From Candidatus Methylomirabilales bacterium (GTDB taxonomy: Bacteria > Methylomirabilota > Methylomirabilia > Methylomirabilales > CSP1-5): 61,887 nt of DNA. Location: positions 1-61,887 of the forward strand of contig JBHIAH010000008.1 in the NCBI GenBank assembly GCA_046758505.1, in the 5' to 3' direction. Shown here piece after piece: positions 45,535 through 51,079 of the stretch. The notes under the pieces were generated by a model, which was given only the letters and a program-made list of their open reading frames with translations, searched no databases and had not been told where the DNA came from. Both the position numbers and the translations under genes were made by a program. Positions within the stretch are counted from its first letter, which is position 1, and each line of letters opens with the position of its first letter.

Positions 45535-46704
45535 TCAGGCAAAGGCGCTCAGGCCAGTGATGTCCCGGCCTAGGAGCAGGGTGTGGATCTCGTGGGTCCC
45601 CTCATAGGTGTATAGCGACTCCAGATTCAGCATGTGGCGGACAACCGGGAACTCATCCACAATCCCGGCGGCCCCCAAAATCTCCCGGGCCAGCCGGGCG
45701 ATCTCCCTGGCCTTTTCCACGTTGCTCATCTTGGCCAGAGAGATCTGTGTATGTCGGACCTGTCCCGCCCGCTTGAGTTGCCCCAACCGGAAACAGAGCA
45801 GTTGGGCCTTGGTGATTTCGGTCAGCATCGTTACCAGCTTCTGTTGCACGAGCTGGAATCCGGCGATGGGCCGGCCAAACTGGACCCGTGCCCTGGCATA
45901 CTTGAGGGCCACGTCGTAGCACGCCATCGCAGCGCCCACGGCCCCCCAGGCGATACCATACCGTCCCTGGTTCAGGCACATCAGGGCCACCCTGATCCCC
46001 TGCTCGGTCCCCGGGAGGAGGCTCTCCTGCGGGACTCGGCAGTCCTGGAAGATCAGCTCGGAGGTGATGGACGCGCGGAGGGAAAATTTCCCCTGGATCT
46101 CCCTCGCGGTGAATCCCGGCAGTCCCCGCTCTACCAGGAAACCGCGAATCCCTTCGTCGGTCCGGGCCCAGACGAGCGCGACATCAGCGATCGTACCATT
46201 GGTAATCCACAGTTTACTCCCGTTCAGAACATAGTGGTCGCCCCGCCGGACGGCCTTCGTCGCCATGGCTGCGGGATCGGATCCGTGGTCCGGTTCGGTG
46301 AGTGCAAAGCATCCGACCCGCTCTCCCCTGGCGAGAGGAGGGAGCCACGCCGTCTTCTGCGCTTCCGTTCCAAAGGCGTGGATTGGATACATCACCAGAG
46401 ACCCCTGAACCGAGGCAAAGCTTCTCAGCCCGCTATCCCCCCGCTCAAGCTCCTGCATGATGAGCCCGTAGGCAATATCGCTGACCCCAGGACAGGTATA
46501 CCCCTGCAGATCGGCCCCCAAAACTCCCAGCTCCCCCAGGCGCGGGATGAGTCCCACCGGAAAGGTTCCCTGGCGGTGATGTCCCTCGATGATCGGAAGC
46601 ACCTCGGCATCGACGAAGTCGCGGACGGTGTCCCGGATCAAGCGTTCTTCATCCGTCAACAACTCGTCCACCCGGTAGTAGTCAAGGCCAACGAATGGTT
46701 CCAT
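45535..46704 (-). CDS. acyl-CoA dehydrogenase (glutaryl-CoA dehydrogenase-like)
   Basis: ELERGDSGLRS, FALTEPDHGSD, KLWITNG, TYEGTHEIH; ATG at 46704. Confidence 0.92.
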   Translation of the reverse strand: MEPFVGLDYYRVDELLTDEERLIRDTVRDFVDAEVLPIIEGHHRQGTFPVGLIPRLGELGVLGADLQGYTCPGVSDIAYGLIMQELERGDSGLRSFASVQGSLVMYPIHAFGTEAQKTAWLPPLARGERVGCFALTEPDHGSDPAAMATKAVRRGDHYVLNGSKLWITNGTIADVALVWARTDEGIRGFLVERGLPGFTAREIQGKFSLRASITSELIFQDCRVPQESLLPGTEQGIRVALMCLNQGRYGIAWGAVGAAMACYDVALKYARARVQFGRPIAGFQLVQQKLVTMLTEITKAQLLCFRLGQLKRAGQVRHTQISLAKMSNVEKAREIARLAREILGAAGIVDEFPVVRHMLNLESLYTYEGTHEIHTLLLGRDITGLSAFA

Positions 46705-46933
46705 ACCAATCTCGAGGAACAAGGGAAAAGAGACACGACGAGAGAAAAATACCACGGCCGCTCAGGGAAGACAAGCAACACGTCCGTCCCTGGGGGGGGA
46801 GAAAATCCTTACACCGTGACGCGCGTGACAGTCAGGGAGCCGGCAACGCCGCTACCCTCATCCCGCGGTGCATGCGCTTTGATGATTTTCGATGACGGTA
46901 CCTCCTTTGACTCGAATGATCCCATATAATTCC

Positions 46934-46956
46934 GGCTGGGGGGAGAACCCCCAGCC
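46934..46956 (-). terminator. intrinsic terminator-like hairpin downstream of the Lys-rich peptide genes
   Basis: GGCTGGGGG-N5-CCCCCAGCC 9-bp stem, 11 bp after the peptide A stop, followed by AT-rich GGAATTATAT on the minus strand. Confidence 0.6.
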
Positions 46957-46967
46957 AGGCAGCACTG

Positions 46968-47045
46968 CTATTTCTTTTTCTTCTTCGTGGCCTTCTTCGC
47001 TGCCTTCTTCTTGCCGCCGGCTTTCGCTTTCTTCTTGGCTGCCAT
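46968..47045 (-). CDS. Lys/Ala-rich micropeptide A, MAAKKKAKAGGKKKAAKKATKKKKK (25 aa)
   Basis: ATG 47045, TAG 46968-46970; SD AAAGGGGGTGA 6 nt upstream; below the ORF-track size cut-off. Confidence 0.75.
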   Translation of the reverse strand: MAAKKKAKAGGKKKAAKKATKKKKK

Positions 47046-47102
47046 CCAGTCTCACCCCCTTTCCTCACAGGTCACTTCCAGGAACTCAGCAAGGCACCAC
47101 TC

Positions 47103-47165
47103 CTATTTCTTCTTCTTTGGAGCTGCCTTCTTCGTGGCCTTCTTCGCTTTCTTCTTGGCTGCCAT
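47103..47165 (-). CDS. Lys/Ala-rich micropeptide B, MAAKKKAKKATKKAAPKKKK (20 aa)
   Basis: ATG 47165, TAG 47103-47105; same SD/leader as peptide A (47143-47186 identical to 47023-47066). Confidence 0.75.
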   Translation of the reverse strand: MAAKKKAKKATKKAAPKKKK

Positions 47166-47229
47166 CCAGTCTCACCCCCTTTCCTCGCAGGTCATCCCCC
47201 GGAAATCTGTCCGGTGGATTGGTTAGACG

Positions 47230-47679
47230 CTATAACAGGCGTGTCTGACGATCCTGGGCATAGACGCGCTTGCCCGCAGCCCCCACCCATTGCTCCGCGA
47301 CGTTCAGCGTCGCCTCGAGCTCATACAGGGAAATTGGGCGGTCGGCTGACTCCAGAAAGTGTTGCCCCTTCTTTCGAACTTGGTCCACGTCATCCACCAT
47401 GGAGGCCTCTCCTTCTCCGACGAGGCCGCCGGCCATCTGGAGCAGTGTGCGCGCCTGATCCCGCCCTCGAGGACGCATCCCTTCCGCTAACGTCAGAGCC
47501 CGCGCCGCGCGCAGGATCGCGTGGGCGGCAACGACGTAAGCCCACTCGGCATCAGTACCCGCCATCGCCTGCGCGGTCTTCAGATCCTTCTGGGCCCGTG
47601 CCATAAGACGATTCGCACGCTGCAAATCGGGTGCCACGACCTCGACCATGCCTTTGGCTTTGAGCTGCTCAAAGATCAT
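47230..47679 (-). CDS. HEPN-domain protein (divergent)
   Basis: A..DL.TA....WAY....A..ARAL...G.R pattern typical of MNT-associated HEPN proteins; motif region reads RKKGQH; overlaps upstream gene. Confidence 0.65.
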   Translation of the reverse strand: MIFEQLKAKGMVEVVAPDLQRANRLMARAQKDLKTAQAMAGTDAEWAYVVAAHAILRAARALTLAEGMRPRGRDQARTLLQMAGGLVGEGEASMVDDVDQVRKKGQHFLESADRPISLYELEATLNVAEQWVGAAGKRVYAQDRQTRLL

Positions 47680-48229
47680 GGAGCGACCCGATCAAGGGAA
47701 TCGTCCTCCCCTGTGCGATCTCCCGCAGGAAAGGATCTCCCTCCGCCTTGCGCCGCTGATACTCCCCTTCGTCGAAGACCAGGTAATTGATACCCCGCGC
47801 AATCCGGAGCTCCAGATCTGCCACCACGCGATTCAGTTGCGCCATGCGCGGTCGTCCCACCACCAACAGGTCGATTGCCCCTCCGTCCGGGGATGCGGGT
47901 TCCCCGAAGATCAGCGCCACCCGAATCCCAGTAATGCTCCGAAGCCCCTCGCCAATCGCCTGAGGGACTCCCCGGGTCTTATCGATGATCGCCTTCAATT
48001 CCGGATAGAGGGGAAAGATCTTGTCGACGGTGTAATACCGGAGATTGCCAACCTTGGTGCTCATCAGCAGTCCTGCCTTTTCCAAGTTATCCAACTCCCG
48101 CTTGATCCCCGAGATGTCTCGTTTGATCTCCCGAGCAATCTCCCTCACGTAAAATCGCTCGTCTGGACAGCTCAAGAAAAGCTCCAGCAGTTCCACCCGG
48201 GTTTCAGACGAAAAGAGCCGCTCCAGCAT
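47669..48229 (-). CDS. winged-helix plus nucleotidyltransferase-like (MNT) protein with degenerate active site
   Basis: LFSSETRVELL...FYVREIAR...RELDNLEKAGLL wHTH; IFGE...AIDLLVVG in place of FGS...DID. Confidence 0.75.
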   Translation of the reverse strand: MLERLFSSETRVELLELFLSCPDERFYVREIAREIKRDISGIKRELDNLEKAGLLMSTKVGNLRYYTVDKIFPLYPELKAIIDKTRGVPQAIGEGLRSITGIRVALIFGEPASPDGGAIDLLVVGRPRMAQLNRVVADLELRIARGINYLVFDEGEYQRRKAEGDPFLREIAQGRTIPLIGSLHDL

Positions 48230-48238
48230 CTGGATTTG

Positions 48239-48281
48239 TCCTTTGATGAATTAAATACATCAAGGGATATTTTTTTGTCAA
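48239..48281 (-). promoter_or_regulatory. promoter with overlapping palindromic operator
   Basis: TTGACA on minus strand at 48281-48276; inverted repeat TCCTTTGATG-N9-CATCAAGGGA (48239-48267) covering the -10 region. Confidence 0.65.
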
Positions 48282-48539
48282 CACTTTTTTTCATATTTTT
48301 CAAAAAAAAGTTTGTGGGAATCTGGAGATAGCTCTGGTCGGCTCAGAGGCCCCTTCAAGGGAGGGGGCATATCCTTTGACTAGGAATCGGGAGACCGGGC
48401 AGGAGCGTCCGCTATCCAGTCAGGACGCAGGTCCCCTGGACGCAAAATAAAACAGACCGGCCGTGGAGCAGGGTTCGGGGGGCGGATCGGTTGGGAAGCT
48501 ACTCGGGGAGGAGATCACGCGACCCCTCCCGCTCGAACG

Positions 48540-49559
48540 CTACGCGCCAGGCGCCTGTGTTCCTTCAGGAGGGTCCGCCTCGCCAAAAAACACGGCGCGT
48601 TCAAGGTTCCGGTGGAATATGGTCCACCCCGGGCGGTACGGATCGGGACGATCCTTGACCAGCTTCCGAAAAAGATTCACTTTCCCATCCAGGTTCTCGA
48701 CCGCGTGCAGAATGAGCGCCTCCAGCGTCTTCGGACGTCGCGGCGACCCCCACTCATACTGCCCGTGATGGCTCAGGATGTTGTGGAGCAGCTCCATCCG
48801 AAGCAGAGGCGGGAAGTCGGGAATCTGTTCGATCTGTGCTTCCACAAACAAGACTCCCTGTGTGATGTGGCCCAGCAACCGCCCCTCATCCGAGTAATCG
48901 AACCCGTGCTGCCATGTAAGCTCAAAGATCTTCCCCACGTCATGAAGGATGGCGCTTGCAAGGAGGAGGTCCCGATTGACCGCTCCCCCGTAATGCGAGG
49001 CGATCGCGTCGCACAGCTTCACGACCGATACGGTATGTTCAAGCAGGCCACCGAGATACGCATGGTGAAGCCCTTTGGCCGCCGGAGCCGCCGCCAAGGC
49101 CCCCCGAATACCTTCCTCCCCGCAGATGCGAGCTAAGAGAGAGGTGAGGGGCTCGCTCGTCAACGTCTGGATCATCTCGTCAAGAAAGGCCAACATGGAC
49201 GGTACATCGGCTTCGGTCGTGGGAAGAAACTCTTCCAGAGCCGCCTCGCCGTCACGCGCCAGGCGCAGGCGTTGAATGGTCAGCTGCATCTCTCCCTGAT
49301 AACTCCCCACCACCCCCTGGACCTTTACCAGATCCCCCTCGCGGATCCGTTCTCCAACCCCCTCCGGGTCCTCCCACATCACGGCGGGGAGCTCACCTGT
49401 CCGATCCGCCACGAGGAGGGTCAGAAAGGGGCCGCCGGTCTTCCGGACGCGGAGTTGCGGATTGCGCACGAGGAAGAATGTGGTAACCGTATCGTTGAGC
49501 TGCAGATCCTTAACCGGGACTCTCTCCGCCATTATTGCTTTCGCCTCCGGGACACTCAT
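48540..49559 (-). CDS. yhaM: OB-fold/HD-domain 3'-5' exoribonuclease YhaM family
   Basis: LADRTG-like OB fold (VADRTGELPAVMW), HHAYLGGLLEH, LHDVGK, SHHG; TGATG coupling with upstream gene. Confidence 0.88.
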   Translation of the reverse strand: MSVPEAKAIMAERVPVKDLQLNDTVTTFFLVRNPQLRVRKTGGPFLTLLVADRTGELPAVMWEDPEGVGERIREGDLVKVQGVVGSYQGEMQLTIQRLRLARDGEAALEEFLPTTEADVPSMLAFLDEMIQTLTSEPLTSLLARICGEEGIRGALAAAPAAKGLHHAYLGGLLEHTVSVVKLCDAIASHYGGAVNRDLLLASAILHDVGKIFELTWQHGFDYSDEGRLLGHITQGVLFVEAQIEQIPDFPPLLRMELLHNILSHHGQYEWGSPRRPKTLEALILHAVENLDGKVNLFRKLVKDRPDPYRPGWTIFHRNLERAVFFGEADPPEGTQAPGA

Positions 49560-51079
49560 CACACCTCGGTGGAGGACCCCAGGTGCTGCCGCAGGACCTT
49601 TCCCGAGATGGTCCTGGGCATGCTTTGACAAAACTCCACCTCCCGCGGGATCTTAAAGGCGGCCAGGCGTTCCCGCGCGAAGCGCAAGAGCTCCCCTTTG
49701 GAAGCGGGGTGCCCCGGCTTCAGAACCACGTACGCTTTGGGGGATTCTCCTCGCGTCGGATCTGGCACCCCGACCACGGCCACATCCGCCACCGCGGGAT
49801 GAGCCGCCAACATCTCTTCGACCTCCCGCGGATACACATTCAATCCTCCCACGATGATCAGGTCCTTCTTGCGATCCACGATGTAGAAATACCCGTCCGC
49901 ATCGCGTCGCCCCAGATCACCGGAGTAGAGCCAGCCATCTCTAAGGACTTCCGCGCTGGCTTCAGGCCAATTGAGATAGCCCTGCATAATGTTTGGACCT
50001 TTCGCGACGATCTCTCCCACGTCTCCAGTCCCTACTTCTTTCCCCGCCGCATCGACCACGCGAAGCTCCACGCCCGGGAGGGGCTTCCCCACCGAACCCA
50101 CCTTTCGAGCACCCAAGGGAGGATTCTCGGTCAGCACGGGTGAAGCCTCGGTGAGGCCGTAGCCTTCGTAGATGGGGATGCCGTACCGCGCTTCAAACCG
50201 CTGTAGGACCTCCACGGGGAGGGGCGCGCCCCCGGAGACGGCAAACCGGACCGACGAGAGGTCGACGTCCAGGGACGAAAGCTGGCCCCAGACAGCATAC
50301 ATGGAGGGGACGGCGGCGAACACGGTGACGCGCTGCTTCGCCATGTTCCGGAGGGTCTGTTCCGGAACGAACCGGGGCTCTAACACGATGGCTGCCCCCA
50401 AACTCACGGGAAAGAGCATGAGGACGGTGGCGGCAAAGGAGTGAAACAGGGGAAGAACACAGAGAAAGCGGTCCCGCTTGTCACACGGAACGATCTGCTG
50501 AAATGACTCGATGTTGCTCAGCAGATTTGTGTGCGTGAGGAGGGCCCCCTTCGGGCGGCCCGTGGTCCCAGACGTGTACAGGCAGACGGCCACATCGTCA
50601 GGGTATATGGCCGTCGAGCCACGCGTCGGCCTACCGACGGAGACCGCATCAGGCGTCCCCGATTCCAGCGATCCGGATTCGGTATCCAGGGGGATCGCGT
50701 GCACGGGGCGGGAGAGCCGATCCGCGGCTTCCTGAAGCCCCGGGAGGAAGATCCGGCCGGTGAGCACCCGTCGAATCCCCGCATCTTCAAGGAGGCAGCG
50801 AACCTCCTCGGGCTTGTACAGCGTATTGAACGGAACGACCGTCCCGCCGGCGGCCAGGATCCCGAAGTATGCCTGAATGAACGCGGGGACGTTCGGCAGC
50901 ATCACGCCGACCCGTTCCCCCCCTTCGACGCCGAGATCCCGCAACGCCACGCCCAACCGGACGACCGAGTGCCAGAGCTCGCCGTAACTCATCGACCGGT
51001 CGCCAGCCAGCAAGACGGTCTCGTCGCTGAATTTTTCTGCGGATCGTTGCAGTAGGCGGAGCAGGGTCACGTCGGTCAC
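49559..51079 (-). CDS. long-chain fatty acid--CoA ligase
   Basis: YTSGTTGRPKG, EGYGLTE, SGDLG, DRKKDLIIVGGLNVYPREVE. Confidence 0.92.
   Translation of the reverse strand: MTDVTLLRLLQRSAEKFSDETVLLAGDRSMSYGELWHSVVRLGVALRDLGVEGGERVGVMLPNVPAFIQAYFGILAAGGTVVPFNTLYKPEEVRCLLEDAGIRRVLTGRIFLPGLQEAADRLSRPVHAIPLDTESGSLESGTPDAVSVGRPTRGSTAIYPDDVAVCLYTSGTTGRPKGALLTHTNLLSNIESFQQIVPCDKRDRFLCVLPLFHSFAATVLMLFPVSLGAAIVLEPRFVPEQTLRNMAKQRVTVFAAVPSMYAVWGQLSSLDVDLSSVRFAVSGGAPLPVEVLQRFEARYGIPIYEGYGLTEASPVLTENPPLGARKVGSVGKPLPGVELRVVDAAGKEVGTGDVGEIVAKGPNIMQGYLNWPEASAEVLRDGWLYSGDLGRRDADGYFYIVDRKKDLIIVGGLNVYPREVEEMLAAHPAVADVAVVGVPDPTRGESPKAYVVLKPGHPASKGELLRFARERLAAFKIPREVEFCQSMPRTISGKVLRQHLGSSTEV

Follow-up and report, generated by a model that had tools for sequence, protein, structure and literature searches.

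The window analysed here, a stretch of 61,887 nucleotides covering contig JBHIAH010000008.1 of a Candidatus Methylomirabilales bacterium (assembly GCA_046758505.1), carries two very short, lysine-rich open reading frames in tandem on its minus strand. These are likely the last genes of a conserved predicted operon that is led by a degenerate toxin-antitoxin-type pair. From the promoter side to the 3' end, the features are the following.

48276-48283, minus: predicted sigma-70 -35 element of the operon, TGTTGACA, with an A/T tract ahead of it
48243-48263, either strand: inverted repeat TTGATG-N9-CATCAA over the predicted -10, candidate operator of the winged-helix protein
47669-48229, minus: ArsR-like winged-helix (wHTH) domain fused to an MNT-fold domain without DxD, 186 aa
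47230-47679, minus: HEPN-T-like protein without the conserved His and Tyr, 149 aa
47143-47186 (copy 1, minus) and 47023-47066 (copy 2): 44-bp identical leader/start block, 21 nt upstream plus 23 nt coding
47172-47182, minus: extended Shine-Dalgarno (SD) site of peptide A, AAAGGGGGTGA, 6 nt before the ATG
47103-47165, minus: peptide A gene, MAAKKKAKKATKKAAPKKKK, 20 aa, 11 Lys, net charge +11, with orthologs in relatives
47052-47062, minus: extended SD site of peptide B, AAAGGGGGTGA, 6 nt before the ATG
46968-47045, minus: peptide B gene, MAAKKKAKAGGKKKAAKKATKKKKK, 25 aa, 14 Lys, net charge +14, with orthologs in relatives
46932-46958, minus: G-C hairpin past the last peptide gene, -25.8 kcal/mol, z -2.3

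An earlier note on this DNA had described the tandem pair alone. All that it reported of the two Lys/Ala micro-ORFs was found again in the sequence: their sizes and Lys counts, the 120 bp from start to start, the TAG stop of both, the identical SD 6 nt before each ATG, and the 44-bp identical block. What it missed is the conserved operon around them, with its regulator pair and a candidate operator about 1 kb upstream.

Coding character of the peptide genes

In the source genome (G000), only 10 of 116,375 start-to-stop stretches of 10-80 aa contain at least 35% Lys, and among these ten a long SD is seen by eye only on peptides A and B. DNA of the peptide region matches 47 of 61 related genomes, including 25 of 25 high-quality ones. 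Among 40 loci examined, SD-led peptide ORFs number two in 32, three in one, one in four and none in three. A search pattern that is free of the SD matches 129 of 161 Methylomirabilota genomes, with no match for the reversed-pattern control; this is a lower bound, since the peptides of the source genome are too long for the gap in the pattern and it was missed. Within the order, 137 distinct genes encode 96 distinct peptides of 12-32 aa. The proposal that the copies vary by whole codons while keeping their Lys/Ala composition holds over this full set (56% Lys, 28% Ala, 5% Thr, 4% Pro and 2.1% Arg), and acidic and aromatic residues are almost absent.

The substitution pattern is that of coding sequence. 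In 273 same-length pairs, which are not independent of each other, differences at codon positions 3, 2 and 1 number 617, 193 and 136. At the amino acid level, Ala, Thr, Pro and Gly are under constraint and Arg substitutes for Lys, with CGN making up 9 of 46 Arg codons. In low-GC genomes AAA-AAA is avoided (29 observed vs 45.9 expected; 0 of 2000 permutations as low). Pairing of the SD over 11-12 nt is found for 127 of 131 peptides vs 9 of 1913 long ORFs of the source genome. Taken together, these comparisons show peptide ORFs A and B to behave as coding genes under selection. The 11-nt SD of the peptides occurs at 19 sites in the source genome, and the two best-scoring of its five HU/IHF genes (C37:17413-17682 and C4:35246-35512) share it.

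The idea that such genes are overlooked by annotation was borne out as well: 0 of 8 peptides are present in a collection of 15 billion proteins in which both upstream proteins are found, so the gene callers behind the catalogue checked have left the peptides unrecorded. Trypsin would leave nothing of them, and standard proteomics would thus be blind too.

Within-genome identity over a 48-nt block is 0.96 vs 0.88 and 0.79 for the best orthologous copies, and since the identity within the genome exceeds that of orthologous copies, the 44-bp identity is probably due to recent homogenisation, by conversion or re-duplication. As a side observation, the C-terminus of the first peptide reads G-[RK]-G-C or K-G-K-C in one genus of the order (loci L020, L023, L024, L030, L036, L037, L040 and L042) and in some Nitrospirota (L276-L278). 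This kept terminal Cys may serve a dimer, a metal or a modification.

The upstream pair, its promoter and the Rokubacteria counterpart

The first gene of the predicted operon encodes a protein whose Pfam HTH matches lie below the cut-off and whose fold matches ArsR-type regulators and MNT antitoxins. The catalytic motif of MNT proteins is GS-x10-DxD, and DxD is present in 3 of 108 peptide-linked wHTH-MNT sequences vs 7 of 7 paralogs. The second gene product matches PF05168 at E 0.0017, below the cut-off, and its best fold matches are the HEPN domains 2hsb, 3o10 and 1ufb, all weak with E of at least 0.004. His76 is found in 2 of 90 peptide-linked HEPN sequences vs 128 of 143 family homologs, and Tyr110 in 0 of 90 vs 102 of 116, while Arg102 is kept in 90 of 90. 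The top fold match, 2hsb, belongs to the AF0298 family, for which the upstream His is described as an alternative active site in the available part of PMC3710099. We infer that the wHTH-MNT/HEPN pair has been disarmed, and the word is kept at that strength because HEPN proteins without the motif can still be toxic according to the same part of that source.

The MNT-fold gene lies directly 5' of the HEPN-fold gene, as MNT-HEPN pairs require, although the HEPN fold matches are weak. The likeness to MNT-HEPN systems (HEPN-T, PF05168; HepT/MntA) lies in gene order, in the overlapping stop and start, and in both folds, as far as these are described in PMC3710099. The operon differs from them in the loss of DxD, His76 and Tyr110, in being core and vertically inherited, and in the peptide genes that follow.

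The link between regulator and peptides does not depend on choosing loci by their peptides. From 80 metagenome loci picked by the wHTH gene alone, 14 were too short, and 65 of the remaining 66 carry peptides; GGRGGTG precedes 129 of the 131 peptides in the loci so picked. A control stretch gave 7 matches in 65, which on inspection are 8-codon frames that lack an SD and span the promoter A-tract. At one locus (L215) no Lys-rich ORF lies behind the regulator pair. Behind intact wHTH-MNT paralogs with enough sequence, one of them in the source genome, peptides were found in 0 of 6. The paralog pair in the source genome (C57:10589-11149) looks intact, with DxD and His, and has no peptides, which makes it a natural control within the same genome.

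A strong wHTH-MNT ortholog is present in 24 of 25 genomes of the order, and the 25th is interrupted by a contig end. The module is core and mostly single-copy, and the wHTH-MNT tree follows the host families; paralogs are patchy. The branch uniting all linked wHTH-MNTs has support 92/93 and is not starred. The wHTH gene is present at 19 of 25 Nitrospirota loci; 17 of these 19 also have the HEPN gene and 2 lack it. Gene order in Methylomirabilales is constant for the upstream pair and varies among lineages for the downstream genes. In the window, the downstream gene at 45535-46704 (minus) encodes an acyl-CoA dehydrogenase similar to glutaryl-CoA dehydrogenase, with an NCBIfam match that stays below the cut-off, and it follows the peptides only in family f1. 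Upstream of the operon lies a YhaM-like OB-fold/HD nuclease gene (48540-49631, minus), likewise below the NCBIfam cut-off, which adjoins in part of the genus.

The predicted -35 element is conserved. All 106 distinct upstream regions of linked loci have TGTTGACA within 110 nt of the start of the wHTH gene; TTGACA served to anchor the alignment, and the TG in front of it is invariant too. A consensus promoter scan of the window did not call the predicted -35/-10, because of an 18-nt spacer and a -10 that departs from the consensus. Over this -10 lies the inverted repeat, whose inner arm pairs are complementary in 93, 82, 73 and 100 of the 106 regions. One of these pairs swaps between T-A (56 regions) and A-T (17), and is thus a compensated pair. 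The right arm is degenerate in many Nitrospirota. From this pattern we infer that the wHTH protein binds the repeat at 48243-48263. Among 22 pattern matches in the source genome, the repeat over the -10 is the only copy with an AT-rich spacer; a search of that genome for a wider regulon gave no second AT-rich operator and no enrichment of the 9-nt spacing.

At the other end of the operon, the terminator-like hairpin proposed earlier is real and conserved, being present in 73 of 87 distinct loci, but it does not qualify as an intrinsic terminator: there is no U-tract, only 2-6 T occur in the next 12 nt, and the terminator scan was silent. It is likely a 3' end or a stabilising stem. No covariation or compensatory changes were seen in an alignment where the G-run aligns poorly. 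In five loci of the genus with the terminal Cys (L020, L023, L030, L036 and L042), the last peptide and the hairpin are separated by some 90 nt or more that look conserved. Ahead of the SD and within the spacers, RNA structure in the order is weak on average (mean z about -0.9), and the Rfam search gave one chance match far under the threshold.

A comparable arrangement with another regulator is found in the Rokubacteria branch (families f9 and f10), where wHTH-MNT occurs only as weak paralogs, in 15 of 74 genomes. Here, the gene ahead of the peptides encodes a PF09952 (AbiEi_2) domain plus an HTH. PF09952 is weakly matched, with 3 of 10 scanned orthologs passing E 1e-5, while the ortholog itself is found in 74 of 74 f9/f10 genomes with E below 1e-108. 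All 38 orthologs inspected (the 30 best, plus 8 picked from the distant end) carry one or two peptides within about 70 nt of the stop, and all 38 have an inverted repeat after TTGACA with 7-8 of 8 outer pairs complementary. Of ten AbiEi_2 paralogs none has peptides, and nine are followed instead by an AbiEii/NTP_transf_8-like gene of the nucleotidyltransferase-toxin type; comparison of the gene orders shows that the Rokubacteria peptides sit exactly where the paralogs hold that toxin. Pooled over both regulator types, 0 of 16 intact paralogs have peptides. The two regulators are both core and mutually exclusive. Homology between them was not detectable by hhalign (0.7%), and because they lack detectable kinship, two unrelated antitoxin-type DNA-binding proteins appear to lead the same cargo in sister lineages. 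The gene downstream of the peptides in Rokubacteria is recG, and second peptide loci in this branch have no regulator upstream.

The Rokubacteria version can be compared with AbiE type IV systems (AbiEi/AbiEii). It shares with them the leading PF09952-like wHTH gene and the promoter inverted repeat, and differs in having peptides, not a toxin gene, directly downstream; the PF09952 match is weak, as said.

Occurrence across phyla

Similar ORFs are found far outside the order. A scan of GTDB gave at least 119 stretches, 80 of these named; the counts include a single row from an unpublished genome (G185, locus L050), and no conclusion depends on that row by itself. Titles among the matches listed name Rokubacteria, Nitrospirota, Acidobacteriota, Eisenbacteria, Verrucomicrobiota, Planctomycetes, Eremiobacterota, CPR and DPANN archaea. 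The pattern did not demand a frame, and 121 of the 129 matches listed are in frame without internal stop, four of them as ends of longer ORFs. In 97 of these 121 the SD is extended by GGA or GGG, an extension that lies outside the pattern. Outside the order the peptides are 10-20 aa long. The archaeal set comprises 21 loci, of which 19 are in frame and 17 show an SD-like motif; judged by eye, the majority resemble stand-alone units with a T-rich tail.

Samples searched without regard to the SD gave matches in 24 of 101 Nitrospirota, 7 of 121 Acidobacteriota, 20 of 151 in the phylum of a Woesearchaeota genome, 5 of 101 Bacillota (one in frame by eye) and 0 of 101 Pseudomonadota, rates that are not strictly comparable since the search patterns differ between phyla. 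Reversed-pattern controls gave 0 in the Methylomirabilota, Nitrospirota, Acidobacteriota and Woesearchaeota-phylum samples. It is worth noting that homology across phyla is beyond proof, because the peptides are so low in complexity; orthology is shown by synteny only. In viral contigs there were six matches, only two of them in frame, and in that search the peptides are therefore not a phage-borne family. One viral contig (L329) holds an SD-led family member of 19 aa.

Some record titles are doubtful. Three 'Bifidobacterium' loci have their downstream gene in common with Verrucomicrobiota loci, and a 'Methanosarcinales' record falls within the phylum sample of a Woesearchaeota genome; records with doubtful titles (L046, L058, L065 and L103) were left out of the range claims. 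Other single observations concern the neighbourhood of the genes. In two genomes of the genus a second site has an 8-codon MATKKVKK frame with a weak SD (L170, L172). Directly upstream of the peptides, two records have other genes for nucleic-acid-binding proteins: a HARE-HTH protein in a record titled Nitrospiria (L093:1739-2251) and an RRM protein in one titled Woesearchaeota (L111:1797-2144).

Possible function of the peptides

The earlier note had likened the peptides to histone H1, chlamydial Hc1/Hc2, AlgP-type proteins and protamines. Membership in the H1, Hc1/Hc2 or AlgP families was not found, and the likeness is one of composition. At E up to 1, neither peptide has a match in Pfam or NCBIfam, PF07382 and PF07432 included, and the PDB gave no sequence match either to a single peptide or to a profile built from 22 peptides. 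In the ESM atlas a 32-aa member finds only unnamed clusters at 0.90, with low recognition; the nearest named cluster is HC2 (0.86, 20% share), which is a lead only. Protamines are Arg-rich, and 'protamine-like' fits poorly because Arg makes up about 2% of the residues. What the peptides have in common with Hc1/HctA, Hc2/HctB, the AlgP C-terminal domain and the H1 tail is a Lys/Ala(/Pro/Thr)-rich polycation that varies in length by repeat units; with HctA they would also have in common the need for tight repression, which is predicted here and reported for HctA in the available part of PMC3469542. They differ in size, as Hc2 has 165-237 aa (PMC2848022, in the part available) and AlgP a 154-aa tail, against 10-32 aa and no other domain here. 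By analogy, then, the peptides would work like the tails of known H1-like proteins, yet they fail family membership.

The reading that fits best, to which we give a probability of about 0.5, is that the peptides act as plentiful, non-specific polycations on DNA and RNA, which they would coat or compact, and that a domesticated antitoxin-type repressor limits their dose. Nucleoid or RNA binding, as put forward in the earlier note, is plausible. Peptides A (+11) and B (+14) would coat and compact DNA, and RNA too, like a free histone-H1 tail. The winged-helix protein would repress the shared promoter and so cap the peptide dose; without such control, a polycation made from a maximal SD would do harm, hence the need for a repressor. 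The HEPN protein, if dead, would serve as a co-repressor or as a partner that binds RNA, and this step is the weakest of all. That the operon is read as one transcript is very likely, and high translation of the peptides is likely too. Autorepression by the wHTH protein is fairly probable, and for nucleic-acid compaction as the job of the peptides in vivo the balance is slightly favourable.

Precedents for the single steps are available from several sources, each consulted in part. Oligolysines of +3 to +31 condense plasmid DNA in vitro (PMC2790876), and DNA binding is described for peptides with KPAA repeats (PMC9239181). In E. coli, chlamydial HctA condenses the nucleoid and, if not kept repressed, kills the cells (PMC3469542). 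AbiEi autorepresses its own operon (PMC3985639), as shown for the COG5340-type, a different family from PF09952. On these precedents for condensation, lethality and autorepression, the locus can be read as a feedback-limited source of polycations for the nucleoid. Composition does not identify the target, since any peptide of +7 to +14 binds polyanions in vitro. Against the compaction reading stand the many copies that lack an upstream regulator (second loci in Rokubacteria, 5 of 25 Nitrospirota loci, and those in Acidobacteriota, CPR and DPANN, where the neighbours vary), the regulator pair without peptides at L215, the negative search for a wider regulon in the source genome, the non-consensus -10 with its 18-nt spacer, and the degenerate right arm of the repeat in many Nitrospirota. 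There may also be a promoter inside the HEPN gene, separate from the shared one.

A bolder version is more tentative and rather doubtful at present. It takes the domesticated antitoxin as a sensor that would release polycations of 10-30 residues to compact and silence the nucleoid, in an undescribed chromatin or dormancy system, with peptides placed at the toxin end at least twice independently. The peptides, ribosomally made, would then have the shortest histone-like genes, and their stand-alone copies from Acidobacteriota to DPANN archaea would make them an overlooked cross-domain class of nucleoid proteins.

Other explanations should be weighed against the compaction reading. The peptides could be conditional toxins or dormancy effectors, kept silent by the antitoxin-type repressor and freed once stress or infection leads to its decay, whereupon the nucleoid would collapse and growth would stall. 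They fill the slot that a nucleotidyltransferase toxin occupies in nine of ten AbiEi_2 paralogs, the layout arose with two unrelated regulators, and HctA kills E. coli (PMC3469542, in the part available). We nevertheless consider this unlikely: the vertical, mostly single-copy inheritance of the module is unlike that of its patchy paralogs, and stand-alone copies in DPANN and Acidobacteriota look unregulated.

Also unlikely is that the peptides are small basic ribosomal or ribosome-associated proteins, filling an rRNA pocket or stabilising ribosomes. The proteins bS22, Thx and eL41 are very short, strongly basic ribosomal proteins, and the peptides resemble them in both respects and in being easily overlooked by annotation. 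As core genes with a maximal SD they fit this size and charge class, and seryl-tRNA synthetase precedes some CPR/DPANN copies. They differ from this class in having no fixed length or sequence and several copies per genome; length varies between 10 and 32 aa by K/A units, with one to three unlike copies per locus. Further points against it are that Pfam, NCBIfam and the PDB gave no match, that the source genome has a separate small basic gene of the bS22-like COX24_C type (C5:43115-43198), which scores above the Pfam cut-off, and that no ribosomal-protein gene was named among 55 upstream ORFs scanned.

It is still less probable that translation itself is what matters, with the ORFs trapping ribosomes or draining Lys-tRNA, stabilising the regulator mRNA, or sensing lysine for the next gene. 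A near-maximal SD, tandem low-complexity ORFs and a conserved hairpin behind them would suit such a role, and in family f1 the next gene is the one for the acyl-CoA dehydrogenase. However, the downstream gene changes by lineage, being recG in Rokubacteria, while the upstream pair is constant; Ala, Thr, Pro and Gly are constrained as amino acids and Lys is swapped for Arg; and stand-alone archaeal copies are often without a co-oriented gene behind. The more specific idea that the ORFs act as a lysine attenuator for this dehydrogenase was discarded: an amino-acid attenuator leader calls for a fixed downstream operon related to the amino acid, and the gene downstream differs between lineages.

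Polyphosphate binding, which the earlier note had offered as one option, is weakened and now very improbable. AlgP associates with polyphosphate granules (PMC9239181, in the part available), and the K/A/P composition of the peptides resembles the AlgP tail, from which a role in binding or organising such granules might be argued; but PF02503 and PF03976 (ppk1 and ppk2) were not found in 5 of 5 peptide-bearing genomes, for two of which completeness is given, 96.8% in the source genome and 97%, with controls matching 7/14 and 8/14. Finally, chance micro-ORFs in an AAG-rich repeat, an idea suggested by the low complexity and by search patterns that impose start and end, are refuted by the frame and codon data, along with the zero counts of the reversed-pattern controls and of Pseudomonadota and the recovery of 65/66 and 38/38 from regulators.

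If the compaction reading holds, the peptides would be a core nucleoid component across a phylum that includes nitrite-dependent methane oxidisers and abundant soil Rokubacteria. They would indicate how small a working H1-like protein can be, and toxin-antitoxin regulators would have been domesticated twice for one cargo. No description of this peptide family was found in the openly accessible papers searched; small-ORF catalogues may list such peptides with no description attached. This analysis adds the candidate operators, the loss of catalytic residues and the AbiEi_2 swap. The reading can be tested cheaply, as the peptides are synthesisable and the candidate repressor-operator target is a defined 21 bp.

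A last observation concerns three loci (L363, L364 and L398) in which inspection by eye shows, 20-30 nt past the stop, a complement to the SD of the peptide itself, as in fold-back-repressed mRNAs of small toxins. The feature is not general.
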